A stretch of DNA of 63,745 bases, filler included, from Collodictyon triciliatum (GCA_043381765.1; 4 parts of 4 records of this genome joined end to end with filler, not necessarily neighbours in it), one strand, 5' to 3'. Shown: positions 965 through 61,261, counted from the whole stretch's first letter. The notes: generated from the sequence alone by a model not told the origin. Numbers and translations are program-made.

Positions 965-3900
965 TTAATCCAAGAGGGGATCTGTCAGCCTAGGCTGGGT
1001 CAAACCCTTCATCTGAACTAGCTTTTGTTTGATATCACCACCTTGAAAAATCGGAAAAACAAAAGCGACCGATGTAAAATAAAGCAGCCATGCCGAGTTA
1101 ATGCCGATGACAAGTATGGCGATCCAAGACTGAGAGCCGAACAAAGTCGACAGAAGCGATAGGAAAAATGAAATGAATATGATGTATAAACTGGACAGCT
1201 CCATTTGATTCTCGATTTTTGAGTTGTACGGCTGGTATTTCTTTTGCATCCAAATCGAACCCTGTATAATAATATTTTTGTTTATTTGTTAAAACTGTGT
1301 AATAATACGTGATGTAAAAGGAATTGGAACAAATATTGAATTTTAACCTGAATGACAACCACGAGGAGCGTAAAAAAAACGGATGGATTGGTATATGGAA
1401 TGACACTGAGGATAAAAGAGAAAACAAGACGACGCGCGATGATGACAAACTCCCAGTTCCTGTAAATCTAGATGAAATGAAGAAATAAAAATACTTTCAG
1501 TGACACTGGGATGATACTGCAACCATTATAAGTACTACCTCTTTGTATGGCAAGTATAAGAATCCATATCGCGCTCTTGGTTCGTATCCATGCCTTACTG
1601 ACATAATGCTTACTTTCCACCAGACGAAGACAGGTAAGGCAAGCAGGAATAGAATAAAGACAGGGACAGAGACAGCAAGAAGAGTTTTATACTCATACGA
1701 GGCCGGATTACATTGAATCCAAGGCTTGAAATTTAAATACCATCGATCTTCACCATCATCATAAACAGTACATCCAAAAACACCAAACACTTCTCGAGCA
1801 ACAGAGTAGTAAATGAAAAATAGAAGATTCAAAGTGATGAGCACCGCCTATTTTGGTATCAGCATAAGATTAATGAATTCTTGAATCGGTGCTATGGAAA
1901 GGACTGGTTTACGAAACCAAAGTATTTGATCGTTACCTTATTTTGATTGTGCCCGCGCCCAAAGTAGTACATTACAAAGCCCACACTGAGGAAAACAGGT
2001 ATTCTTACAAAACTTACAATTAGAGAGCTCAAGACACTATCAATTCCTAGGACACATGAAAGATTGGGGAATTGAATTGAGGCAGCTGATGACAGAGTGT
2101 CAATAAAGTTATTTGAGTCACTTGATTCATTGATTCCAGATGAAACAATCGAGAGCGTCTGCATATGAAACAGAATGATTCTTATCTTGGCTACAAAAAT
2201 TATGCAATTGTAAATAATCCCGTGATGAATTCTAATGTAAATTACAATTGAATTGTTCATAAAAGTATCTTCACAGATTGAAATGTAAAACCTTTATGCT
2301 CATACTGACCTGATTTTGAAGTTTCGGAGAAGTAGAGATACCCTATGAAAGCAGAAAATCCCATCACACCGATAATTAGGGTCGAATAAATCGCTTCGTC
2401 TTTGCACTCCACACACGATCTGCCTTGATTTCCATATCCTTTTTGGCATTTCGAGCATGCACGTCCCTGGTATCCATCTCTGCACAATTGGGTAATTTCA
2501 ACAGTGGTGTTTGAATTGGAGACTGTTTCAGGGACAAGTGTATCACATGACTTTGATAATGGGCATGGAAGAATCGATCTCAATCCAGCAACTTTTGGTG
2601 AAGCATGACAGTATCTCAAAGATGCTCCGTCTAGGCATTCACATTCTCTTGGGCATGGAATACAATTGTTTCCAAAACCAAAGTACCCAGGCAAGCATTT
2701 ACAAAATTCATAGTCATAATATTTTGGGTTTAAACTTATTTCTAATTTTATCAAACCCGAGCTTGAAATAATCGACGGACACAAGTAAGTTTTGGATTCA
2801 TTTTCCAAATTGAACGGTGCTGTGTAGCTCGTGAAATTGGGAAGAAAGTTGCCTGTTCCATGATTCATGGAGTTAATATCCAAACCTAGATATTCGAGTT
2901 TGGAAAACCCACTGTATGATTCAGGAATGTTTCCTCTAATCGGATTTCCAGAAAGTTCCAGAGAGGTCCATCTCAACAAATTAGTAAGCTCATCAAGTTT
3001 CGTTAAGCAGTTATTTCTCAAACTTAATTTTCTCAAATTGAAAACGAATCCGAATATTCTCCAATTTAATTCTCCGTAGAGTTTGTTGTCATCAATAAGA
3101 AGATTCTCATAAAAGTAAACAGTGCCTACAATTGGGACAATAAAGATGCTGACATCTCCTGAAAAGGAATTACTTCTCAAGTCTATTGTCATTAGATTTG
3201 GTAAAGACCAAAAACTATCAGATATGCTTCCAGAAAACCGATTATGAGATAAAGTCAAGGATTTTAATTCCGATAGCGTCTCAAAGAAATCTGGGATTGT
3301 TTCATTCATATCATTTCGAGACAAATCTATGTATTGGACGAGCGGAATATACAATTGACTGGATATAGGGCCCGTTATATTGTTCTCACTGACATCTAAT
3401 CTTGAAAGCATCGATAATTTGAAAGGAGGCAGATTTCCAGTAAAGTTGTTTCTAAATAGGACCATTTCTTTAAAATTTGAACACCTTTCGAAAGAAGGTA
3501 TCTGACCTCCAAGCTGATTTTCATAGACAGAAAACGATTCCATGAACTGCAGATTCGAAAAGTTTGGAACTGTGCCTATATAATTTCTTTATTGAATGAA
3601 CTTAAAGACATATTCTAATACATGAAAATTACCCGACAAAAGGTTTCTATCAAAATATATCCATTTTACTTCCGCAATACCATCGAAATTCGGAATGGTT
3701 CCTAATAGTCAGTTCATTGGTCTTGGTAAGTAAGACTATAGTGGAAAACAAAATGATTGTTTCATGGGTACCACCTCTCAATTTATTGCTGCTAAGGTAA
3801 ATCTCTTGAACAACTGGGATTCTATCGAAGTTTGGAGTGGAACCTATAAAAATACTCGAGCGTGAGTATTAAGTGCTATGATTCAAAATAGAAATAATGT

Positions 3901-5812
3901 AAACCGGTTAATTTGTTGCTGGATAAGTAGATCATTTTGACTTTTGGAACGCCACTGAAGTTAGGAATCGTTTCTAGATAAATTGAGCTGATAAAAAAAA
4001 ATGAAAGGTGCATATGATTCATTTTTGTAGTAAATATAACCACTAAGTTGATTGCTGCCTAGGTAAATCCATTCGACGATGGGAATATTCCTGAAGTTTG
4101 GTATAGTTCCTGGGTACTACGCTTAGAAATTATTCAAAGAAGGGAATTTGATTCAAAATTACCATTTAATTTATTTCTTGAAAGGTAAATCCTTTCAACA
4201 TCTGGAATGCCTACAAAGTCTGGAACACTCCCTTGAATAAAATAAATGTTTATAGAATCAATAAAAGAGTAGAAACATTCTTTTTTTTTTTATCTATTTA
4301 TCAAAATGTGCGCCTAATTCAAAATTTAGCAAATAATGAATGTCACCACTAAGGTTGTTGTTAAACAAATAAATCTCTTTGACTCTGAAAATATTCTTAA
4401 AGTCTGGAATAGTCCCTATGAGATACAAATGATTTTACTATAGCCTCAAGACAGCAAAACAGATGAGTTTACAATACCAGACTGATATATCAATATAATT
4501 ACCATTCAATTGATTGCTAATAAAATATATCAGCTTAATATTTGGAAGATTTGCAAAGTCAGGGACTGTGCCTTAAGTATAGCTCATTAGTATACTTCCT
4601 TCAATTAAAAATATTATATGATTCATCGTATTATATGGGAATAAAAAAGCTGAAGCTGAAATGGGCGAACAGAATTACCTGCTATTTTGCTTTCATAAAT
4701 TCCAATTTCTTCAACGGATACCAGACTCGAAAAATCAGGTAGTGTTCCTAAAATATGATTTAAATATTGGCGAAAGACTAATCCATATAATATTTTTGAT
4801 GTACCTGAGAGCTTTGCACTTGAGCCAATCGATAAAATTTTCAAAAAATAAAGCCCAGAAAAGTCGGGGATATAACCCTCCAGTTCATTTCTGTCTATTT
4901 CCAAATGCTGTAGTACAGGAATTTTTCGGAAGTCTGGAATGGTTCCAGTAATCATATTGAAATGAAAATCTAAGTACAATAAACTTGGAAAATTGAAGTC
5001 CACCAGTTTTCCGAAAATAAAATTAAAACTCAAGTCTAAGTCAGCCAAGTATGGAAACTGCTCGATAATGGTTGCAACAATTTCAATATCGCCGTGCGCA
5101 TTATTGTCATCCATCCGAATTGCGACAACAGGACATGTGTTTTCCTATTGGACAATTTTAAGGAGTAAAACATCGAATTTTTGAGTCAGTTTTCTCAATA
5201 CATGACAAAAAAAGAACAGAAAAAAAAACCTACCATGTATTCTTCATCCAAGCAATTTTTGTCACAATCAATCCCATACCAGTCGCATATGGGTATTGTT
5301 TCTTCCTTCCATCCACTAGTGTTAGACCACTTATCTCCGTTAGTTGCATCATAAAATTGAGTAAGAAGCTGAATTTGGGACGACTGATTGTGTTCGATTT
5401 TGTCATTCAGCTGAGGCGAGGCATCTAAATCGTCAAGCTTCACGCCCTTGGTCGTAAATTTACGGTATTTTGCATACGGTTTCTTATCTGCATTTGTTAT
5501 ATTTTCGGATTGTCTGCCTGCATTAACCCCACGGCCCAGGCTTGTGTAATGGGTTTGAGAATCGCGGGTGCGATGATTTGGCGAGTAATAAGAACGTTCT
5601 TCTAAAATTGGGAGGCATGTATCATCGTATAGTTCCAGTAGAATATGAAAAGCATCCTCCATTCTCATAGACTGAAGCTCGTGTCTTGTATACTGGCAGC
5701 TTGTTTGGAAAGGTATTTTAGTTATTTGAGCTTTTGTATTGGAGGAGTTATACCTTTCGAAAGATCGTGCTGGGATAGAAGCTGCCAGTATGAGGACCAC
5801 ACAAATGTGCAT
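965..5812 (-). CDS. LRR + Cys-rich + multi-pass transmembrane (GPCR/TRP-like) receptor, multi-exon, apparently intact
   Basis: Signal-like start MHICVVLILAAS; LRRNT cap (LTQFYDATNGDKWSNTSGW...CDWYGIDC); plant-type LRRs (LxxNxLxGxIP); Cys-rich CKCLPGYFG...C..C and CRDGYQGRACSKC; TM region with FGC...WYL...PWIQC, YGFLYLPYKE|IYRNWEF and QPY..ENQME. Hand splicing through GT-AG introns keeps frame to TAA at 965-967. Confidence 0.88.
3633..4747 (-). repeat. Array of eight 69-nt single-LRR exons (phase 1-1)
   Basis: Exons at 3633-3701, 3775-3843, 3905-3973, 4041-4109, 4163-4231, 4347-4415, 4503-4571 and 4679-4747. Each encodes one 23-aa LRR, e.g. GTIPNFDGIAEVKWIYFDRNLLS and GSTPNFDRIPVVQEIYLSSNKLR, bounded by AG| and |GT. 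Confidence 0.9.
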
Positions 5813-7226: not shown

Positions 7227-7845
7227 NNNNNNNNNNNNNNNNNNNNNNNNNNNNNNNNNNNNNNNNNNNNNNNNNNNNNNNNNNNNNNNNNNNNNNNNNN
7301 NNNNNNNNNNNNNNNNNNNNNNNNNNNNNNNNNNNNNNNNNNNNNNNNNNNNNNNNNNNNNNNNNNNNNNNNNNNNNNNNNNNNNNNNNNNNNNNNNNNN
7401 NNNNNNNNNNNNNNNNNNNNNNNNNNNNNNNNNNNNNNNNNNNNNNNNNNNNNNNNNNNNNNNNNNNNNNNNNNNNNNNNNNNNNNNNNNNNNNNNNNNN
7501 NNNNNNNNNNNNNNNNNNNNNNNNNNNNNNNNNNNNNNNNNNNNNNNNNNNNNNNNNNNNNNNNNNNNNNNNNNNNNNNNNNNNNNNNNNNNNNNNNNNN
7601 NNNNNNNNNNNNNNNNNNNNNNNNNNNNNNNNNNNNNNNNNNNNNNNNNNNNNNNNNNNNNNNNNNNNNNNNNNNNNNNNNNNNNNNNNNNNNNNNNNNN
7701 NNNNNNNNNNNNNNNNNNNNNNNNNNNNNNNNNNNNNNNNNNNNNNNNNNNNNNNNNNNNNNNNNNNNNNNNNNNNNNNNNNNNNNNNNNNNNNNNNNNN
7801 NNNNNNNNNNNNNNNNNNNNNNNNNNNNNNNNNNNNNNNNNNNNN
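7227..7845. other. Assembly gap (Ns)
   Basis: Run of N. Confidence 1.
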
Positions 7846-9996: not shown

Positions 9997-12900
9997 CGTT
10001 CTCAATTATGTTTGTATGCAATTATTGCCAGTCTATTTATCGCTATAAATCATATGTAATGATGTCTCTAACTTTTAAAATTATCAAAAGGACATGGAAA
10101 ATCAAAACAAGTGATATACAGTTGTTTGTGGATAGAGTTTGGAAAATCAGAAAATTAGTGAAATATTTCGCTTTATTCTTTTCTCTGATGATTTGCTTAA
10201 GTAAGATTAGAGGGCATTATCTTGATAAAAGTGTTTCTCATTTTTTCTCGATAGGCAGAGAAAACTTTTGTGTTAACGCCATTTCTCTCCAATGCTATTT
10301 TTATACTTTTTAAGATAGCTATGACCCCCCCCATATGTATGAAACCAGAAATAGGATTATGAATCCACTATTAAGTGCAACTATAGCATATGCTATCCAG
10401 TAGCTCCCTGGGGCCAGTTGTTGAACCAAGGCAGCAAAAAAGAAATATAGAGTAGTAGCCATGAATTAATTGATAGAGCGTCATCAGAACTGAGCAGATA
10501 TGGCTCGAATCTGTTCTGAAGAGTAATGGCTGACTAACATTGATAATTTAAAAAAATTTTAAACTATGTGCACACTTTTCTTCACAAAAATTGATAAGCT
10601 AGTTTTCAAAAAGAAACATACTAGGCGGTTTCCAACTTAATTTTAAAATTTAAAAAATTGTCCATGATTAATCTAAGAGTTCAAAAAATGACTCACTTGA
10701 ATCAGAACGAATATCACAAAATAAAGAATAGCTGGGATGTATACAGAACAACAAACGCGGTAAAACCAAACAGAATAGACTGAATCACTCGAAAAACTAC
10801 CCACCAGTCGTATCTCTGTATTGATAAAGAATATTTTTGGAAAATTTTTCAATGATATTCGATAAAAAAAATTGCAATAGTTACCTCTTCATATATTGCT
10901 GATATTCTATTTATTTGTATTTGACAAATAAGATCAAAATTTGACAGAGATAGGTCAAGCCCCCCTTCGTTTTCTTTGTTTGGTGTAGCATTTTCCGAAA
11001 GGTCGTTTGTTTCATCGCTCATGTGGTGGCTTGAAAATTTTGGGTTTCTTTTTGTTTGTTCCACGTGAATTTTATTATGTCGTCTGTCTTCTTGATTTAC
11101 ACTCGTTAGCTCAACATCCCTCGGTGTTACCTAGTTTAGAGTTGTCACATGTCTGAAAATAATCATACGTTTTTAATTTTTAAAAAGCAATAATACCCTT
11201 ATGATCGATATTGTCACCATAGAGCGATTTAACTCCTTGATATATCGAGACCTCTTCACTATTAGCCATACTAGTGACGTATACAATATCATGTATATGA
11301 GCCCTGGTAAGGCGGCAGCTAGCATCATCGCATAATCATGCGTTAATGGGCTGCATTGGACCCAAGGATAAGCGTTCACAAACCAAGATTCGAAACTTTT
11401 ATCATATAAAGTACATCCAAAAGTACTGATAACATCTTGTGTTACAGAAAAGTAGGTTGCCTCAAGAAAGATAAACATAACTGCGACTACCTAAATGAAT
11501 TCAAGTTCAATTTTAAACAATCAATCGGACAATATTTAGATGTATCATCGATAAAAGCGAACCTTCTTTACATTTTTCTTATCTTTCTTTGATTTGAATG
11601 TGCGAAATGCGAGGAATCCAATAAAAACAATGCACGGGATTCTACTTGAATTCAATAGAGATGTTATATGTGGATGATTTCCAACCATTCATTCTAAACT
11701 AGAAAGCCTCAAAGAAGCGATATTACCAATAAATCTTTCTGTGACACTAAAATCGGGCAGGGTAATAACACCTCCAAGTACTTGCAGAATTTGAGTGTAA
11801 AACAAAAAAATGTCTAGAGAGGCTGTTTCGTAGAAAATAATTGGCATATAAGACTTTTTTGAAACAAAATTAATTATATATTCTTTTTAATTTGTTAAAA
11901 TTTTACCTGATTGGCCCACCCCTTCAGAATTATTAGATCCATTTTGATTAACTGTCCCATCTTCCTGGGTATCTTCTCCTATCCATGCAACAAACACTTG
12001 CCAAAGTATGCCGATAGACAAAACAAACATAAATACAGCAATTCTAAAGAAAGAATAGTCCGCATTACATTCAACACAGACCCTGCTTTCAAATGCAAAG
12101 CCTTTCTCACAGGTAGAACACCCCTTCCAGTAGACCCATTTTTCCAGTCAAAGTCTTTTTCCCCACTCTTGATTGATATCCTTTGATACATATCTGTGCC
12201 TATTGAGTATTGACAAACCTCTGGATTGACACACAAAATCATATCCTGTATTTCGATTACAGAAGGCGTAAAAAAGCAATTTTTCAAGGAAACTCCATTA
12301 GTGCATTCACACTCTATGGGGCATCGACCACATTTATTTGAAAAATCCAAAGTATCCAGGCAAATATTTGCAAAATATGTACTCATAATATATTGGATTC
12401 AACCAAACTTCCATTCTTTGAGGCTCTGATTATGGATATGATAGAAGGGCTAATGTACGAATCTGATAAATTTTCCAAATTATACGGATCACCATATTGC
12501 ATAAATTTAGGAATGAACGATGCATTTTCATGAGTCATGTAAGTGTCTATGAGACCAAGATATTCCATTTTCGAAAAAAGATTGAAAGATTCTGGAATAA
12601 TTCTGATGATTGGATTTCCAGTCATATGGAGTCGATTCCATTTGAGCAAACTTGTCAGGGGTTCCAACCTTAGATATATTGTTGTTTTTCAAACTTACGG
12701 TATTCAAATTACGAATATTGTCGAAAATTCTCCGATTCAATTCTCCATTTAGGTAATTGTCATCCAAAATCAAGGTTTCGTACGTATAATTGTACACATC
12801 AGAGGCTAGTACGACAAATTCGCCTATATCACCCGCAAAAGAATTATTTCTCAAATCTATTGAAACAAGATTTTCAATATTCCAGAACTTATTCGGTTAG

Positions 12901-13340
12901 CTACCCGAAATGTTGTTGTGAGGTATAGAAATGGAATTTAACTTGTAAAGTTTCCCAAAATAAGAGAGAATTAACTCGCTTAAATTGTTTCTCGACAACT
13001 CTATGTACTCTAAAGAGGAAATATCCCAATCATCAGGAATCGATCCAGTAATTAAATTTTCACTAAAATCCAATTTCTTCAAATTTTTCAGCTTCAACCT
13101 GGGAAGCGAACCCGAAAAACTATTCCTGTAGATGAATATCTCAATCAAGCTTTCACACAGTTCGAAGTCAGGAATTTTTCCCTCTAAATTATTATCATAT
13201 GAAGAAAACGATTCCAGATATCCCAAGTTTCTGAAAGATGGCACATTTCCTGATAAAATGATGCATTTTTCGATTTTAAAAGATTTTAGTAGACAAGGCG
13301 TAAAAATCATGCACACAATTTGGTATTTGATATGAAAAAC

Positions 13341-15505
13341 CTGCTAGATTATTTCTGGATATATCCAGTTTCTCTAAATACAAATTTCCGTCAAAGTCAG
13401 GTATGCTTCCTATCAGTTGATAAATTCAGTCAATAATCAAAGAAAAATAAAAATTATGAAATAAACCAGTAAGATTTATTTTGTTGTCAACAAAAATATC
13501 TTCCACCAGAAGAATATAGCTAAAATTTGGTATTGTTCCTAAATATTGGATTAAATATGAAGTAAATAGTAAGCTGCATTTTTTTTATAATTTGACCAAC
13601 ATATGCAAAATAAATTAAGGAAAATGAAATCAAGCGAACCATATAGCCTGTTACTTGAAAATTTCATGAAATACAAATAGGAAAGGGAATCAAAATCTGG
13701 GATAGAACCTAATATATAAAATATGTTGAGAACGAGATGATGAACATTTTAAAGATAATATTTTTAAATTTCGAAAGATATGTGTTAAAAAATTTTCTTG
13801 AAAGTACAAATAAACCTTCCAAGTAGTTACTGGATAGAGTCATTACGATTATGTATGGGGTATTACCGAAGTTGGGTATCGTAACTTTTAGCAAGTGGGT
13901 TACTTTTTGAAATTGTGTGTTTCTTAGAGAATGGTTTATATTGAATTTTGATGAATAAAAGTACCGTTCAACATATTATTGTATACGTAAATTCCAAAAA
14001 ATTGGGGAGTGTTGGTAAAGTCCTGTATGGTTCCCTTGAAGGAGGGACTCTTTCAAAGTTGAAAAATTACGCAAATGAATTAAAATAATATACGACAAAA
14101 CTCCTCCTACCGCTGATGAAATTACCAGATAACCAAAGTCTATTCATATTATAGAAATTGGTAAAGTCGGGTATTGTTCCTGTAAGATTTAGAAATAATA
14201 AATAATAATTTTCATCGGTGATAAATTTCCTGAATCCAGAGACAAATACCTGTTATCATGTTGCTTTCAATTGAATTTTTCATTAATTTTGGTACGTAGG
14301 TAAAGTCTGGGATGGTTCCTATTTTTTTGATTTCATGCATGGATGGCAATTTTTTGATTTACTTTCAAATTATTATCATAGTTTTATGCTTCCGTGTATA
14401 ATATAATTTTTGCCTGTGATTGTATTGGCGGAAAGATAGACCGTATCAAGTAGAGGAATTTTTGAAAAATTAGTAATAGTCCCTGCAATAAACATTATGA
14501 AGATATTTAAACAATAATGGCAGAAAATAAAACCATTTTAATTTTAATTGTCACTCTACGTATTTAAATGATGTTCAAGTTACCATTTAAATCGTTCAAT
14601 AACAGGTTAAGAGTTTTCAATATAGAGATATACTTGAAGTCTGGAATACTTCCTAGAAGATTGAAGCACACGATAGGCAAGAAAAATTATATTCTTTCAT
14701 TATGACTGAATTTACTTCTATCTTATTAATGTGGGTCATCAATATTGATAGATTTATTTGCAAGCCAATATATGTTACTAAAAACCTGATAATCTGTTTC
14801 GGTGCATATATTCCAGAAACAATAGGTATATTTCCAAAATCTGGGACGGAGCCTAAAGAAAAATAGACAAACATATAAATTATATAGACACAGTAGTACA
14901 TCTGAAAGGTACTCAAATTAATCTGATAAAAATAATTCAACCAAAAATTCTGGTCTAATTGCAATAACCTGTAAGTCTATTCAAATAAAAATAAATAATC
15001 TCAATTTTTGGTATACTCAAAAAGTTAGGGACTGTTCCTATTGCACATGAATTATAAGGATTTTTAAGGCTAAATTATAAAAACTATAATAAATAATTTT
15101 AAAATTGAAGTCAAAACATCGTAAGCCCTTTCTTCATTATATAATACCAGATATCTTATTATCAAGTGTTGGTATCCAATACAGAAAAGGAGCATATCTG
15201 AAGTTCGGTATGGTTCCTATTTTTTTGGATTTTAAAGACCAAAATTTCATTTGTGTTCAAATAATTTGAGTAATTTATGAAATTGAATATTAGACAAACC
15301 AGATATTTGGTTGTTGGGTGAATCAAGCAGAATCATGCTCGGTAGATTTTTAAAATTAGGGATTTATCTATTTTATAATTTTATTTAGTATTAAGGTTTT
15401 TTATTTTGAATAAAGTTATAAACCTGAAATACTGACCAATGATGTATGTTTGGAAAATATGCAATATTTGTAGATTCGGGAGATTGAAAAAGTCTGGAAT
15501 ATCTC
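13341..15505 (-). repeat. Array of about 14 single-LRR exons (mostly 69 nt, phase 1-1)
   Basis: Exons starting near 13341, 13467 (72 nt), 13640, 13816, 13965, 14111, 14250, 14414 (GC donor), 14584, 14787, 14969, 15148, 15300 and 15424, e.g. GSIPDFDSLSYLYFMKFSSNRLY. About 10 remain in frame. Confidence 0.85.
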
Positions 15506-15997
15506 CTAGGCCATAATATATGTAATAAAGAAACTGTAATGAGCCACAATTCTTCAAATTTATACGTATTTTATATCAACATAAAATTTCAAACATTTGA
15601 ACTAAACCATATGAAAAAAAGTCTTACCTGTAATTTTGCTACTTAATCCTATGCACATCAGGGTAAGCTCTGGTTTTTTGAAAAATCAGGTTTGTACCCT
15701 CCAATGAATTTCCTTCTATGAATATAATTTGTGAATTCGGAATCCCAGAAAAATCTGGAATAGAACCGGTAATCTTGTTCAAAGAGACATCCAAGTATGT
15801 AAGAAACGGTAGGTTAAAGTCGGGGAGCGCCCCGTAAATAAAATTGTCGTATATTTTCACAGACAAGAGACGCGGGAAATATTCCAACGTATTTGATACT
15901 TCCCCTATATCCAGATAGATGGTTTCCAACCAACTTTATTTCAATTAATGAACAAGAGTTCTCCTGTTTATTTAATTTTTAAAAAAATATAGTATTT

Positions 15998-16045
15998 TTA
16001 TGATCAAATTTTTCCTTTATTCTATTCAAAAAAATTATGATCGAA
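15998..16045 (-). mobile_element. Micro-insertion of LINE 3' end with TSD, intronic
   Basis: tttttcctttattctattcaaaaaaa between ttatgatcaaa (15998-16008) and ttatgatcgaa (16035-16045). Confidence 0.7.
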
Positions 16046-17946
16046 AATAAAATAAAATATTGGACACTTAAAATTATATCTACATACATCCAACTGAGTT
16101 TTTGAACACTTTGAGTGGCAGTGTATCCCAAACCAATAACATATTAGAGTTTCATGACTTTTCCAACCCGAATTATTGAAGCAAAAGTCTCCAATCAGGA
16201 TTCTTTAAAGCTCATGCAATAATTCAAAAACACTTTTCGAGGTTTCGGATTTTTCTTTTACCCAGCTTGCGTCAGTGCTGTAAGTTAGGTCATTGGCTCC
16301 GATAAACTTCCTTTCAAACGAATTTTTCCATTCATCTTTGTGTAACAACTGGGCACCCAAGTGCGTCCTTGGGATCTGTGATCTGATTCTAAGACCCATC
16401 TCGGAATTCTCCAAGTATGTTCTTAGAATCAGTCCAAAGAACCACCGTGGACCGCTCCAGGAACGTTCTCAGAAACCTCCCCTGAACCCTTCGTCCAGGG
16501 GATATTTAATGAGTCTGTCGACTCTTTAATAGGTTGAGAATCATAAAGTAAGCCTGTAGCAGAATAAAAGGACATCCCCTTACACTTTGTCATGAAAATC
16601 ATATTTACTAAGACTTTTATGATTAAAATCATATGGGATAAATAATTTGTAGTATATTTAATCGATGCAGTAAATTTTATTACCTTCTTGACCTAAGTGG
16701 TCATGATTCTCATCGGAAGAAAGTAGACATGAATCCATGTAAAAATCCAGCAAAATTTTGAATGCCTTATCCGTATTCATGGATATAATTTCATTGCGAC
16801 TCAGCAAAGCATCTGAGACTTGAGTTGCCACTGAACGAAGATAAACCATTTTTTTTACTTTGAAAATCATAAAAAATTTGTGCTTTCTTAAATTATCTTT
16901 ACCTGTCATCCCTACACAAAATAGGACCAAAAAGAGACAAAAGAATCAATATGTTCCAAATATTCAATTTCCTCATCAAGGGGAAGTGTTGGCCAAGACA
17001 ATATCTATATTTGGCTAGGCATTACTATGCATAAATGATTTTTTTGCGTGTTTGATTATTTTTGACCCCGCATTTTTTTGATTTATCATGTGTCAAAGTT
17101 TTAGTAATTTTTAATGCACATTAGAATTATAACTGCATATTATAATAAATTCTTTTCAAAAGCAAAAGTTATTAGTGAAAACATCAGAAAGAGGATTATT
17201 GCAAAAGAAGGTCCTCGACATTTGGTTCACTTAAAATATTTGATAAAAAGCTCTAATCCTCTCAATTTTCTTTATTATTCATTGGTGATTTCAATAGTTA
17301 TGAATATTCTCCTCTTAAAAATGCAATAAATTAAATTATTTGAAGTTAAAAGAAAAGAAATTTTCTTTTTTCAGTGCGTCACGCTTTTTTAGAGTTATCT
17401 TGTATTTCGTAAATTATATTGGAAATATGAAAAATTAATGCTTACATCACATGCTAAAATTCTTACAACAAAAACTACGAGATGTTATGAAAGAGCTTAA
17501 ATTATCCATATAAAACACATAATACGCCTCCAGTTTTTAAAAAGGTCACAACTTGAACATTATATTATCATATATTCAAGAGAAGTGAAACTTCAATTAT
17601 TTCATGATTTTCCTATGATTTATATTGGAATAGAACTTGCCACTTTTTTCATCAAAATATCTTTAGAATAGCTAAACTTAGGTACCTAACATGTTGTAAT
17701 GAATTATTTATTTAATGGCCCAATATTTTGAGAGTGATAAGAAAATTATGGAATAAATATATTTTTGTTACAAATCATTTAGACTATTAATGTAAACTAT
17801 GAATGAAATAATGAATGATTATTCTATAATTCATAATTTCTCTCCTTGCATACAGACATACCGCATGACTTTTTTTTAAAAAAAAGGGAGCATACACCAT
17901 GATTAGCAGTTAGCAGATACTATTCACAAAACTATGCATATTTCAG

Positions 17947-26488: not shown

Positions 26489-26588
26489 NNNNNNNNNNNN
26501 NNNNNNNNNNNNNNNNNNNNNNNNNNNNNNNNTTAATTAATTAANNNNNNNNNNNNNNNNNNNNNNNNNNNNNNNNNNNNNNNNNNNN
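26489..26588. other. Artificial 100-nt scaffold spacer N44-TTAATTAATTAA-N44
   Basis: Identical construct at 43837-43936 and 61162-61261; the 12-mer has stops in all six frames. Confidence 0.95.
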
Positions 26589-43155: not shown

Positions 43156-43836
43156 TGGATTGTGCTTGCCGTGGTTGGGATTCTCGTCTGCGCTGAAGTT
43201 GCGCGTGGGCAATGTACCGTACCCAGCGAGCAACCCTTCGGTCTTGTGCTGAACCCTGACCTCTCTGTCTCCATCTGCCTTGGCTCCACCATCAATCCGC
43301 AACCCCCTAGCATGGTGGCCTCTATCAACCAATGGCTCCCGGAGTACAACAACCCAGCCCCGGAGATAACCAGCACGAGCAATAATCCCAATCTCGTCTT
43401 CACGTCCACCAGTACCATCTACATCACCTTCATTACCGAAGGGGCTGGATACCGTAATTCGCTTGGATATTTCGTGTTCGATGCCAACCAGAACATCATC
43501 TCCAAGAACGTTGTTTTTCCGGATGCATCCAATGACCCAGCCACCCTCCAGACTGGTCAAACAGTCAAGATAGGGCCGTTCTCAGCCGGGCGAAGAGTTG
43601 GTTTCTTCCTGATTGCGAATGGGTTTACCAACAAGTTCTGGTCCACCGACCTATCCGGCTCTACCTATTACTCTATCTGGACAAAGAACCCAGACGGGAA
43701 GCAGCACATAGCAATGTTCACCGAAAGTACCTCTGGAAAAGTCCTCATCGGCTTTGAGGACTTGTACAACCTAGGAGATGGAGATTATAACGACGCCGTC
43801 TTCTTCGTTACAGTCGACGGTTCCATCGACAACAAC
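43156..43836 (+). CDS. Secreted DUF4114-domain protein, partial (first exon not located; cut by spacer)
   Basis: Signal-like WIVLAVVGILVCAEVARG; FITEGAGYRNSLGYF; VGFFLIANG; IGFEDL..GDGDYNDAVF, typical of DUF4114 / LruC-associated domains. Long intron-free stretch. Confidence 0.75.
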
Positions 43837-43936
43837 NNNNNNNNNNNNNNNNNNNNNNNNNNNNNNNNNNNNNNNNNNNNTTAATTAATTAANNNNNNNN
43901 NNNNNNNNNNNNNNNNNNNNNNNNNNNNNNNNNNNN
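43837..43936. other. Artificial scaffold spacer
   Basis: N44-TTAATTAATTAA-N44. Confidence 0.95.
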
Positions 43937-46406: not shown

Positions 46407-47129
<723 letters not shown>

Positions 47130-47396
47130 TGAATAAATCCGCCCCACTCGCCCACACACCCGTTGTCCAGTTTGGCATCCACCTGGCGCGCCCTTGTCCA
47201 GACTCCGAAGACGCCCTGCTTCGTTGCAAGGCTGAGGACTTGGACCGGGGCGGGTTGGAGTCAGGGCCGCCCCTCTTTGTTTGTCTTGGATGTACTTTAT
47301 ATGTGCCACAGCCGAGGCCGCCTGCCCTGCTTGTGCTATTTGGTATGGCTTTGTGGCTGCCTCGTGAGGAGGCCGAGCCGCTCTGCCCAGAGGTGA

Positions 47397-55095: not shown

Positions 55096-57673
55096 CTAGA
55101 ACATTCCGCCCATGCCGCCCATACCGCCACCCATGGGCATCGGGGGCTCCTTGTCCTCCTTGGGCAGCTCGACGACGGCGGCCTCGGCGGTGATCATCAG
55201 GGAGCTGACACTGCACGACAAGCAAGCAACGTAAGTGGGTGTGTGAGTAGACACGGGATTGTGGTCGGCAAAACAAAAGGGCGCAGCAGCAGACGCCACA
55301 CACGCGGGAAAGCAGGGCGAGAGAGGATACTGTAAATGGTATGGGGTGGTGGTGGGGCGGCACCTTGTGGCGTCGAGCAGGGCGGTGCGGACGACCTTTG
55401 TGGGGTCGATGATGCCGGCCTTGAACATGTCGACGTACTCGTCGGTCTGGGCGTTGTAGCCGAGGGAGGCGGTGAGCTCCTCCACCTTGCCGACGACGAC
55501 GGCGCCCTCGACCCCGGCGTTGGAGGCGATGGTTGCGATGGGCACGCGCAGGGCGTTCTGCACGATGCGGATGCCGACGTCCTGGGACATGTTGGGGCCC
55601 TTTGTGTCCCGCAGGATGCGCGAGGCCCTCAGCAGCGCCACGCCACCTCCGGGCACAATGCCCTCCTCGACGGCGGCGCGTGTGGCGCACAGGGCGTCTG
55701 TGACGCGGTCCTTCTTCTCGTTCATCTCCACCTCCGAGGCTCCGCCCACCTTCAGCACCGCCACGCCGTGCGACAGCTTCGCCAGGCGCTCCTGCAGCTT
55801 CTCGCGCTCGTACTCGCTGGTCGTCTGTCCAATCAGGTCCCGCAGCAGCCCGCAGCGCTCCTCGATGGCCTTGCGGCCCCCGGCGCCTTCCATGATGATC
55901 GTGTCGTCCTTGGAGATCGAGATCTTCTTGGCGCTGCCCAGGATCTCGTCCAGATTCGGGTTGTCGGGGTGGTCCGGGTTGTTGGGGTCGCCCAGGCCGC
56001 CTTCCAGCTTCAGTCCCAGCTCGTCGCTCACCAGCTGTGAATTGTGTGCGAGGGCAAGTTAGTCGTGGGGCGAGACAAACACCTTATCTGTGGTTAGGCC
56101 GTGTGAATGTTTGGGTGTGCGTACCTGGCCGCCAGTGAGGATGGCAAGGTCCTCCAGTTGCGACTTGCGGTTGTCGCCAAAGCCAGGGGCCTTGACAGCA
56201 GCCACACGCACGATGCCGCGCAGCTTGTTGATGATCAGTGTGTTGAGTGCATCGCCCTCCACATCCTCGGCCACGATGACGAGCGGCTTGTTGATGCGCA
56301 CGATGTGGTTGAGAACTGGTGCCAGGTGCATGAAGGATGTCACCTTCTTGTCCACAAGCAACAACTTGGCGTCCTCAAACTCGGTCTTCTGAGTCTTGAC
56401 GTCGGTCAGGAAGTGGCGCGAAATGTAACCGCGGTCAAACTTCATGCCTTCGATCACCTCCAGTTCGTTGACGAGGGTCTTGCCTTCCTGTAGTGGGGGT
56501 TGGTGTGTTGTGGTGAGTGGTAAGCAACATTCTCGAGGGAGGGAGGGGGGTGGGTGGGTCACACGAAAGAGAGGCTGACATAGAGGATTGACGGAAGACA
56601 GCTACTTACTGCGACAGTGATGACGCCTTCCTTGCCGACCTTCTCCATGGCACTGGCGATGAGGTCTCCAATTTCAGCGTCAGAGTTTGCCGAGATGGTG
56701 GCAACCTTATGCGTTCAGATGGGTTATTTTAACTAAGAGCCTCAACGAGTTGCTACACCAGCCTCCAATGGTTCAAACTGTGCCTCCACATAGAATCCAA
56801 AGGGGTTTAAGGCTGATCATACCTGAGCAATCTCCTCACGGGTGGTGACGGTCTTCGTCATTTGACGGAGCTGGTCGACGACTTTCTGGACGGCGAAGTT
56901 CATGCCGCGGCGAATGTCCTCGGGGTTCATTCCGGCAGCGACAGCCTTGAAACCCTCCTGGCAGAGAGCCTGGGTAAGAACGGTAGCTGTGGTCGTTCCG
57001 TCTCCGGCAATGTCGTTGGTCTTCGAGGCGACCTGGCGAACAAGCTGGGCACCGAGGTTCTCATACTTGTCCTTCAGCTCGATATGCTTGGCGACTGTCA
57101 CACCGTCCTTGGTGATCTTTGGAGCTCCGAACGATTGTTCTAGGATGACATTTCTGCCCTGTGGGTGAGCGAGGTCACGTGAGTGAGTATAAGCCCAGGG
57201 CACATAGAGACCCTCTCAGGGCGGAGGTGGGTTAGCGGGCAGCGGACTTACCTTGGGCCCTAGTGTGACCTTGACTGCATTAGCGAGCTTGTCAACTCCT
57301 GCCAGCATTCCCTGGCGGGCGGCCATTCCGAAGCGGACGTCCTTGGCGGCGTAGAATCTCGCATTCTTCCGGAGCGTGGACTAAGAATCGTATTAAAGAA
57401 AGTTGTGGGTTAATACTTGTCCCCCGTAGGCGTGCTCTGTCACTCGGAATAGTTTCAGAGGGTGTTGGGAATATGGACTTCGTTTGTCGAAATCCTTCAG
57501 TGTAACTATGACTATATTGAACCACCATATGGTTTTGTCTGGCCAAAGTTTTTCATCACGAGGGCAATACGGGCATCGAGCACCGGGGTAAAAGTTTGTT
57601 TCTCAGTGTTCATAAAATGGTGACTTACAGTAAGTGGAGACGCCTTGTGCAGCATCGAACCAGAGCCCAGCAT
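55096..57673 (-). CDS. HSP60: Mitochondrial chaperonin Hsp60 (cpn60)
   Basis: Presequence ...[83 protein letters not shown]-terminal tail. Confidence 0.97.
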
Positions 57674-58491: not shown

Positions 58492-60287
58492 ATGCTATGT
58501 CCAAAAACAAAATTCATTCACCGGAAATACAGGAGGAGGATTGGGTTTAGACATGCAATCTCTGTTACCGCAGTGTTTTTCTTCTTTTCCTTCGCTATGA
58601 CGGTGGTTAAAATTCTCAATATCATTTCGGTGCCTCTCGAATGTCCACCAACCCAAACATTTGTTTTAAATAATCAAGTATCCAAAGGACAAGATTTTGA
58701 GTATGGACCCAGGATCGATAACGTATTCAATTATTTTTAATTATTCTCTCGTCGACTTCACAATGGGTTTGATACGTGTCTATAATTATGGTTCAGCAAA
58801 ACCTTATGAATCTTTGTAACAGAACCAAATGGATAAAAGTATCGAAGCCTACATAGCGTTCCATAACACAGCTTTGCGGAGAGAAAACATATCGGACCTG
58901 CGATTTGTTGTTTATGTGGAGAATATTGGTGGAATAGGGAATCACTTCCTACCCATGGTCTCGACTTTAGCGTATGCAATGCTGACAAATAGGATATACC
59001 TACAGCACAAGGTTTGAACATTTTTTTTTAAATTTTTGAAGCATTACCCTCCCTTCCTTTGAATCGAATAAAGGATTTTTTTGAAGTATTCTTTTGAATG
59101 GTTCCATCTTAAGAAGATAAGATATTTCCAAAAAAAACAACAACAACAACTATCTAACCCAAGCAGTGTCTTATTATCTCAATGGACATGAAAGATTGCT
59201 TTCTACTCATCTTTTAGATTCATATTTTTTTTCAAAAGGTCAACGTGTCCGGGGCACCTATGTCCAGTCTATTCAAATCATCATTTAATACAGTTGAGTT
59301 AGAAGATGTTGCCAATAAGCTTAGGTGTGAAAGTTATATCTCGTCTGGGTGTCGTTTTCTTATCTTAGTTCTGCTTTACCCTTCTATGCATTCATTTTTT
59401 CTCGTAAATATAAAAAATAATTTTTTTTGTCATAAATAGACATAATACTAAATTTTTGATGTTGACTTTATCAATTTTTCAGAAGTTCACCACAAGAGAT
59501 TTTAATGGATTCGAATACACTTCACATATCACTGAGGCATAAATATTCAAACACCAGTTGGGAATTGGCGCATTGCCAGAATACTCTCAACGATACACAC
59601 CAATTCATCAAGTATTTTTCAAACCAGTACTTTCTTCCAACAATTACTCACAATCCACACTTCAAAGAGAAAGTGATGGAGTTATTTGGAGATAATTATT
59701 ATGAAGGCAACGTTGATTTGTATGGCCCCCTGTCAAGAATCTTATTTCAGCCCCTACCGTATGTTAAAAGTCTAGTGGACAACTTTGTTCGAAATCACTT
59801 TCGTAAGCACATGATTGGTGTTCAATTACGAAAAGAGTTTCTGAATTTCCAAGGATGGGATATATTATGGCTAAATGCAATTCAAAAAATTCGAGCACTC
59901 CAGTATCCGCAAGAAATCAATCCAAATGACATAGGAATCTTTCTAGCTAGTGACCATAATATCACCTTAATCGAGCAATTGTGGCCATCAGAGCACATTG
60001 TTTCGATAAAGAAACCACCAGGAAGGTCAAAAAAGGCACAGTTATATGCGGTGTTAGATATCCTCTTACTCTCGAAAACCAATAGCTTGATAATCACCGA
60101 ACATTCAACATTTGGAAGTAGTGCTGCAGGATTTGGTTCTATTACGCCTCTTGCTATGACAAGACAAGGGATGTGCAGGATATATCTAAATTCACAGCCT
60201 CATTGCCACTATTGTGAGTTTGTCAAAAAAACATCATGCTTTCATCCTTCTTACTGGTACTCCTTGGATAACATCATCGAAGGATAA
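58492..60287 (+). CDS. Type II membrane fucosyltransferase, GT37 (xyloglucan FUT)-like
   Basis: N-terminal basic stretch plus TM; GGIGNH..MVSTLAYAMLTNR; SNQYFLP; IGVQLR; FLASD; AVLDILLLSKTNSLIITEHSTFGSSAAGFG, matching the alpha-1,2/1,6/O-FucT superfamily motifs I-III. Confidence 0.75.
59033..59090 (+). mobile_element. Micro-insertion of LINE 3' end with TSD, intronic
   Basis: accctcccttcctttgaatcgaataaaggatt between tttttgaagcatt (59033-59045) and tttttgaagtatt (59078-59090). Confidence 0.8.
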
Positions 60288-61161: not shown

Positions 61162-61261
61162 NNNNNNNNNNNNNNNNNNNNNNNNNNNNNNNNNNNNNNN
61201 NNNNNTTAATTAATTAANNNNNNNNNNNNNNNNNNNNNNNNNNNNNNNNNNNNNNNNNNNN
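61162..61261. other. Artificial scaffold spacer
   Basis: N44-TTAATTAATTAA-N44. Confidence 0.95.

Follow-up and report, generated by a model that had tools for sequence, protein, structure and literature searches.

We analysed a 63,745-nt stretch of Collodictyon triciliatum DNA (GCA_043381765.1; four parts of four records of this genome joined end to end with filler; hereafter, the window) and found on its minus strand, at 965-5812, a gene (gene 1) for a protein that combines leucine-rich repeats (LRRs) with a multi-pass membrane module. Exons were located by reading the reverse complement and scanning it for pieces bounded by AG and GT; the resulting model comprises 15 exons with a coding sequence of 3717 nt, a single open frame of 1238 aa, and GT-AG ends at 14 of 14 introns. 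The array at 3633-4747 consists of eight successive exons (the cassettes), each exactly 69 nt long with an AG acceptor and a GT donor, and each encoding one 23-residue plant-type LRR. Contigs of four runs (X1, X2, X3 and X14), none of them on record as RNA, were compared with the window. The parts of gene 1 are as follows.

965..5812, minus strand: gene 1 as a whole, with, in order, a hydrophobic N-terminal stretch, the LRRNT_2 cap, some 22 LRRs, the Cys-rich stalk and the multi-pass membrane module (exon model; RNA contigs for six introns)
5234..5812, minus strand: exon 1, start codon at 5812, hydrophobic N-terminus, a stretch without assignment, LRRNT_2 cap at residues 145-184 (Pfam PF08263)
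4805..5144, minus strand: exon 2, 340 nt, phase 1 at its end, intron-free first 4-5 LRRs including 22-24-aa GxIPDF repeats (Pfam LRR_1, LRR_4, LRR_8 and translation)
4679..4747, minus strand: cassette 1 (gene exon 3), 69 nt, phase 1-1, GTLPDFSSLVSVEEIGIYESKIA; degenerate, IGIYESKIA, without the Asn
4503..4571, minus strand: cassette 2 (gene exon 4), 69 nt, GTVPDFANLPNIKLIYFISNQLN; spliced to gene exon 5 in an X1 contig
4347..4415, minus strand: cassette 3 (gene exon 5), 69 nt, GTIPDFKNIFRVKEIYLFNNNLS; X1 contig joint 4502 to 4414
4163..4231, minus strand: cassette 4 (gene exon 6), 69 nt, GSVPDFVGIPDVERIYLSRNKLN
4041..4109, minus strand: cassette 5 (gene exon 7), 69 nt, GTIPNFRNIPIVEWIYLGSNQLS
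3905..3973, minus strand: cassette 6 (gene exon 8), 69 nt, ETIPNFSGVPKVKMIYLSSNKLT; split codon Glu, not Gly
3775..3843, minus strand: cassette 7 (gene exon 9), 69 nt, GSTPNFDRIPVVQEIYLSSNKLR
3633..3701, minus strand: cassette 8 (gene exon 10), 69 nt, GTIPNFDGIAEVKWIYFDRNLLS; joined to exon 11 in an X1 contig (3574 to 3632)
2310..3575, minus strand: exon 11, 1266 nt, phase 1-1, about 10 more LRRs, Cys-rich stalk and first membrane helix (residues 886-906) (Pfam LRR families, weak DUF7630, hydropathy, RNA contigs over 2310-3574)
2190-1937, 1847-1539, 1467-1348 and 1261-965, minus strand: exons 12-15, multi-pass membrane module, putative distant relative of PF06011 'TRP' (hydropathy, relatives, Atlas neighbours, RNA contigs)

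The cassette array and its expression

All eight cassettes enter and leave in phase 1 (2 nt + 22 codons + 1 nt), and the block connects exon 2 (5144-4805) with exon 11 (3575-2310) in frame across introns that measure 53-115 nt within the array. An initial annotation of this DNA had described eight 69-nt phase 1-1 exons split at the Gly codon; the number, length and phase of the exons agreed with that description, and all nine introns bounding cassettes are in phase 1, but the split codon is Gly at only eight of the nine junctions and Glu (GAA, split after its G) at exon 3973. The repeat reads G-[TS]-[IVLT]-P-[DN]-F-x-x-[ILV]-x-x-[VI]-x-x-I-Y-[LFI]-x-x-N-x-L-x, and both the framework GxxPxF..I.V..IYL..N.L and the variable residue pairs listed earlier were recovered as described, with cassette 1 degenerate. 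Flanking LRRs had been placed in constant exons, and exons 2 and 11 do hold further 23-aa-type LRRs. The GxIPxF-type repeats in these two exons lack introns, so that introns mark the internal block only, as expected for the expansion of a single-exon unit. A scan of both strands of the window for open exons of 66-75 nt, bounded by AG and GT and bearing an LRR motif, returned matches in gene 1 and in a paralogue (13.1-15.0 kb), and otherwise two unrelated matches at about 28 kb; the eight-exon array was confirmed as real and far beyond chance.

Contigs of X1 and X2 carry spliced forms, so these two runs hold RNA. Six predicted introns are skipped exactly in them (1262-1347, 1468-1538, 1848-1936, 2191-2309, 3576-3632 and 4416-4502), namely all three among exons 12-15, intron 11, and two that border cassette exons (exon 4 to 5 and exon 10 to 11). 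One 892-nt contig of X2 spans exons 15 to 12 with 0 differences from the window; run X3, the one used from a group of freshwater, lake-water and subsurface metagenomes with small shares, yielded short pieces, 99-100% identical to the window, and contigs of X14 gave no match to it. Gene 1 is expressed, and is spliced as modelled wherever RNA contigs cover it.

Contigs of X1 and X2 also contain a non-canonical joint from 2703 to 2881, with ends AA..TC and just 21 nt on one side, as well as long loose ends at 2668 and 2901 (window 2668-2901). The joint and the loose ends most likely represent transcripts of other family members with the same conserved Cys-rich stretch, and not a splice of gene 1.

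Within the array, exons 4 and 5 are linked in one X1 contig, whose next 19 nt align with the beginning of exon 6 apart from 2 mismatches; its exon 4 carries 4 differences, and the contig thus derives from a slightly divergent allele or strain. A second X1 contig joins exon 10 to exon 11. Cassette joints in the RNA contigs therefore link neighbours only (4-5, probably 5-6, and 10-11), and no skipping joint was found in the X1 and X2 contigs, in which coverage of the array is thin, depth is low and rare forms are dropped.

The encoded protein, its membrane module and its family

The Pfam scan covered the translations of the seven constant exons, the eight cassette exons of 22-23 aa each being left out. 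It placed LRRNT_2 (PF08263) in exon 1 (23 bits against a cut-off of 20.7), and exons 2 and 11 gave LRR_1, LRR_4 and LRR_8 matches, in line with the LRR ectodomain claimed before. DUF7630 matched weakly (E 0.005) over the Cys-rich portion of exon 11. The approximately 22 LRRs, counted by eye and by motif, read LxxLxLxxNxLxGxIPxF, and LRR-only database matches were best to plant receptor-like kinases and receptor-like proteins (RLPs). The hydrophobic N-terminus in exon 1 may be a signal peptide, residues 1-880 contain 15 N-glycosylation sequons, and 14 Cys fall within the stalk (residues 756 to 881); hydropathy gave 8-9 hydrophobic segments over residues 886-1205. The protein is presumably located at the cell surface. 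We detected no kinase domain in the seven translations, no Roc or COR match in these or in 22 relatives, and no 7tm match in the constant exons, the 22 relatives or 18 module homologues.

An exhaustive profile-free search with exon 13 (103 aa) recovered 63 relatives among 1.84 billion cluster representatives. Full-length relatives are about 30-39% identical to the spliced gene 1 protein over about 900-1200 residues, and the closest library relatives, transcript-derived proteins about 38% identical across about 1000 residues, have the order of LRR, Cys-rich part and membrane module in common with it. The relatives run from LRR through DUF7630 (5 of 22 scanned) to the membrane module, some with FG-GAP or NIDO in front. 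PF06011 'TRP' was found in 3 of the 22 scanned relatives (P0055 at 31.3 bits against the curated 28.5; P0011 and P0062 under the cut-off) and, at E<=0.01, in 9 of 18 short module homologues, and it occurs in 12-25% of the members of the nearest ESM Atlas clusters (score 0.96). These matches tie the membrane module, by way of its relatives, to PF06011 (fungal Flc/Pkd2, 'TRP-like'). The members of this family, to which fungal Flc, Pkd2 and TrpR belong, are described as putative calcium channels or regulators (PMC8618638, PMC9600462).

A search for structural counterparts used a fold model of the homologue P0016, built on an 18-sequence alignment (predicted local distance difference test, pLDDT, 80.6; predicted template modelling score, pTM, 0.74). 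Foldseek against the PDB returned nothing at E<=0.001, with G-protein-coupled receptor (GPCR) chains only in non-significant rows (E about 1), and the module profile matched only designed helical proteins among PDB sequences (E 0.2). A predicted four-copy complex of the module scored 0.00, which is evidence neither way. The module had originally been called GPCR/TRP-like in place of a kinase: the TRP part finds support if taken narrowly as PF06011 and the lack of a kinase is correct, whereas the GPCR part found no 7TM Pfam match and no fold match above noise.

In the word index, the stretch of exon 11 that holds the Cys-rich part and the first helix gave no match. A metagenome contig scan with the exon 13 profile confirmed no relative, and the same kind of scan with exon 11 returned a single weak locus of 1697 bp (L001), which was set aside. 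Among the matches, relative P0064 has the top identity to exon 13 (59%), and P0066 is a second transcript of the same Trinity gene. The two match exactly over 583 residues and part ways where the exon 12/13 boundary of gene 1 falls, through a C-terminal truncation and not by LRR units, which looks like the retention of a conserved intron in a relative.

Age and origin of the cassettes

Gene 1 has a tandem paralogue in the window.

~10650..16320 (ends approximate), minus strand: paralogue (pseudogene), the constant exons of gene 1 around 14 cassette exons (13341-15505) (tblastn, cassette list)

Its counterpart of exon 11 is 48% identical across the first 198 residues of the match, and the cassette array is bounded at the same two places in gene 1 (8 cassettes) and in the paralogue (14), from which it follows that cassette number is labile over evolutionary time. 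Three paralogue cassettes have frame-breaking lengths (68, 67 and 70 nt), and the exon-11 counterpart contains four frame changes and an in-frame TAA at ~12897-12899; the paralogue at about 10.65-16.3 kb is a pseudogene. One of its cassettes has a GC donor (14482-14414) and another is 72 nt long (13538-13467). Cassettes of the two genes are 45-70% identical with no one-to-one or mosaic pattern, and the pair shows no sign of recent exchange at this level of divergence. No LRR cassettes were found outside the two genes within the 63.7-kb window.

Cassette exons within gene 1 are 43-68% identical pairwise, and Tandem Repeats Finder detected no array at the DNA level. Direct repeats extend no further than the exons plus a few bases at the splice sites, which shows the array introns to be mutually unrelated; the idea that these introns are copies of a mobile intron element was ruled out by the absent intron similarity. 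To judge by their divergence, the cassettes appear to be old copies and not recently shuffled ones. Identity at third codon positions was 0.40 within gene 1, compared with 0.32 to paralogue cassettes and 0.28 from composition, an excess that weakly supports an expansion within the gene. Synonymous sites are near saturation (third position 0.30-0.40 versus 0.28 by chance), and the ratio of non-synonymous to synonymous substitution rates (dN/dS) is therefore not estimable from the window.

Concave variation had been put forward as a sign of diversification. The repeat maps onto LxxLxLxxN, in which concave positions can be assigned from established LRR geometry. Entropies at x2, x3, x5, x7 and x8 were 1.41, 2.16, 0.54, 2.41 and 1.75 bits, with a mean of 1.65, compared with a mean of 1.82 bits at the eight other x positions and a top value of 3.0 bits outside the strand. 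Tyr occupies x5 in 7 of 8 cassettes, and x2 is restricted to E, K and Q. The contrast between framework and exposed positions is real, yet typical of any LRR array, and the concave face seems, if anything, partly conserved, which lends the proposed diversification no support. Contigs of a close relative differed at 16 sites, one intronic and 15 coding, the latter divided into 9 non-synonymous and 6 synonymous changes; two fall in a cassette, one of these at a concave position. There is no replacement excess in this very small sample.

Taken together, the array probably arose when an LRR exon bounded by phase-1 introns was duplicated in tandem long ago; the gene is intact and expressed, encodes a membrane protein of the LRR/Cys-rich/PF06011 type, and is spliced constitutively as far as seen. 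The eight 69-nt exons encode the central part of the LRR ectodomain in what is presumably a large surface glycoprotein with several membrane passes, and would have started from a single exon flanked by phase-1 introns that both lie in the Gly codon of GxIP. With this geometry, unequal crossing-over could add or remove whole repeats while leaving the frame and the solenoid intact; the duplication mechanism itself is what we infer from the exon layout. The main transcript most likely takes in all cassettes successively, and diversity would then come from changes in cassette number and ordinary divergence of paralogues over evolutionary time rather than from combinatorial splicing. By analogy with fungal PF06011 proteins, ligand binding may be coupled to an ion-flux or transport-like module. 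Several observations weigh against parts of this interpretation. The greater similarity of cassettes within the gene fell short of significance (permutation p = 0.08) and could stem from a codon preference shared at conserved residues. RNA joints within the array are limited to 4-5, probably 5-6, and 10-11, in low-depth contigs, which leaves the constitutive inclusion of all eight exons no more than probable. The translations of exons 12-15 themselves gave nothing significant in Pfam, PF06011 included, the link being made via relatives, and a wide VIA-align comparison of the P0016 model reached a best Z of 8.0 (Hrd1; root-mean-square deviation 6.4), inside helical-bundle noise. Given no Pfam match on the module's own exons and no fold match above noise, channel function is an analogy only.

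The paralogue is adjacent and a pseudogene, which would fit a reading of gene 1 as a mis-modelled region or dead gene with no working feature; such a reading is extremely unlikely, however, as the frame is unbroken over 1238 codons and 15 exons and spliced RNA contigs are identical or near-identical to gene 1, including the four-exon contig of X2 without a single difference. Alternative inclusion of the 69-nt exons, by regulated or stochastic skipping, would produce ectodomains differing in length and surface, as in the combinatorial receptor of the initial annotation. The claim that any subset of them may be skipped in frame is true by arithmetic, and frame-preserving exons that each hold one structural repeat are the precondition stated for human NLR LRR splice variants (PMC6642158); brown-alga ROCO genes have alternative transcripts with differing sets of LRR exons (PMC11378527), and most of the array lies without RNA cover. 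Nevertheless, we regard skipping as unlikely: the contig joints of X1 and X2 run from neighbour to neighbour, the sole isoform pair of a relative (P0064/P0066) differs at the C-terminus, and cassettes with so constant an x5 and x2 would present rather similar surfaces.

Exon shuffling or gene conversion could also be ongoing in the germline among paralogues under diversifying selection, as proposed for the LRR exons of Ectocarpus ROCO genes. The difference between 8 and 14 cassettes, together with one decayed copy, is typical of birth-and-death receptor families, and the split Gly codon and the 2 + 3n + 1 layout are as in the 72-bp exons of brown algae (PMC11378527, PMC3341825). Against this, no near-identical exons exist at the two loci of this window, where no cassette pair exceeds 68% within the gene or 70% against the paralogue, and neither one-to-one nor mosaic relationships appear, so the swapping of exons considered possible in the initial annotation was not borne out. 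The unrelated array introns, concave positions no more variable than other exposed ones, and the lack of a replacement excess in the close relative (again, a very small sample) point the same way, and we consider such shuffling quite improbable. Equally doubtful is a broader proposal, in which gene 1 would represent an undescribed class of protist receptor: a plant-type LRR solenoid, its length set by the cassettes, fused directly to a PF06011 module, with a ligand (prey, mate or pathogen) gating ion flux, exons skipped combinatorially, and the paralogues with 8 and 14 cassettes as the evolutionary side of the same system. As things stand, the cassette array is best seen as the result of ordinary exon duplication.

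The family that combines an LRR ectodomain with a PF06011-type module is rare and uncharacterised, and is a more interesting lead than the array. We found no published description of this combination in the literature on PF06011, DUF7630 and PF24633, as far as the available text of these papers goes; to judge by their titles, most of the papers listed for PF06011 deal with fungi or invertebrate senses. Should the module prove to be a channel, the protein would be a simple fusion of a ligand sensor to it.

The remainder of the window holds four other Pfam matches.

43156-43884, plus strand: DUF4114 domain (Pfam)
46407-47132, plus strand: ubiquitin-ribosomal S27a fusion (Pfam)
56059-56601, minus strand: weak TCP-1/cpn60 chaperonin fragment (Pfam)
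59466-60287, plus strand: xyloglucan fucosyltransferase-like, sub-threshold (Pfam)

Microsatellites lie just downstream of gene 1: a long CT-rich run (TTTTTCTC-like) at 1-130 of the window, and adjacent runs of the hexamers GCAAAC and GTCTTT (minus-strand reading) at about 715-805. Runs of N comprise a 619-base gap at 7227-7845 and pairs of blocks (44 bases each, 12 apart) at 26489-26588, 43837-43936 and 61162-61261; the pairs are about 17.3 kb apart, and this regular spacing could reflect masking or a repeated element. G+C content is uneven, ranging in 2-kb bins from 0.23 (6-8 kb, a bin that includes the 619-base N gap) to 0.56 (54-56 kb), and both LRR genes lie in the A+T-rich part, at a G+C of about 0.29-0.36.

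Comparison with known systems

ERECTA has a repeat-per-exon structure. With plant LRR receptor kinases and RLPs, gene 1 shares the LRRNT_2 cap and the LxxLxLxxNxLxGxIP repeats; unlike them, it has neither a kinase nor a single-pass anchor, and carries a Cys-rich stalk and a multi-pass module instead. PF06011 is reached by 9 of the 18 module homologues, which through these relatives likens gene 1 to the fungal proteins of that family (A. nidulans TrpR, Cryptococcus and yeast Flc1, S. pombe Pkd2); to our knowledge, the fungal proteins have no LRR ectodomain. Compared with LGR-type GPCRs, gene 1 is without a 7tm Pfam match, and hydropathy gives it 8-9 helices. It also differs from Dscam-like or VLR-like systems, given that exons 4 and 5 occur together in one contig that runs on into exon 6-like sequence, so that there is no mutually exclusive choice at that point, and that the window contains no library of donor cassettes outside the two genes.

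Strict exon-LRR modularity is described for human NLRs, in which the NLRP3 exon measures 171 bp with two LRRs each and skipping of exon 5 was shown experimentally (PMC6642158). The likeness to gene 1 lies in frame-preserving exons, one of which can be skipped to shorten the solenoid without unfolding it (PMC6642158). Human NLRs are, however, cytosolic receptors with ribonuclease-inhibitor-type LRRs, and gene 1 has no NACHT. In Tetrahymena, tens of thousands of LRR exons of exactly 90 bp with uniform intron phase have been attributed to unequal crossing-over and exon duplication (PMC6564038). Both are protist LRR genes with tandem exons of equal length and a single intron phase. The Tetrahymena exons, however, are 90 bp long, in phase 2 by the numbering of that paper, and are spread over thousands of young genes, in many of which repeat units of intron and exon can be recognised (PMC6564038), whereas gene 1 has 69-bp phase-1 exons, is one of only two such loci in the window and shows no similarity among its introns.

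Brown-alga ROCO genes and gene 1 have their exon design in common. Each of their 72-nt exons encodes one LRR from the Gly of GxxP, with nucleotides 3-71 forming whole codons (PMC3341825), and exon shuffling, positive selection and alternative transcripts have been reported for them (PMC3341825, PMC11378527). The LRR-ROCO genes of Ectocarpus and Saccharina resemble gene 1 in a fixed-length LRR exon (their type I) with a Gly start and the same codon split, and in tandem arrays, variable copy number and pseudogenes within the family (PMC3341825, PMC11378527). They differ in that the gene 1 unit is 69 nt (23 aa) instead of 72 nt (24 aa), in that gene 1 lacks a ROC-COR GTPase and joins an extracellular LRR part, through a Cys-rich stalk, to a multi-pass module, and in that gene 1 showed no near-identical shuffled exons, no signal of selection and no splice variants, the features for which the known cases stand out. 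The shared exon design raises the question of whether the LRR exon unit has a common descent or arose by convergence. Although the exon layout itself was already known, gene 1 adds a 69-bp version in a receptor architecture distinct from the ROCO, NLR and kinase cases; equal-length LRR exons in the same phase are a recurring eukaryotic route to evolvable recognition surfaces.

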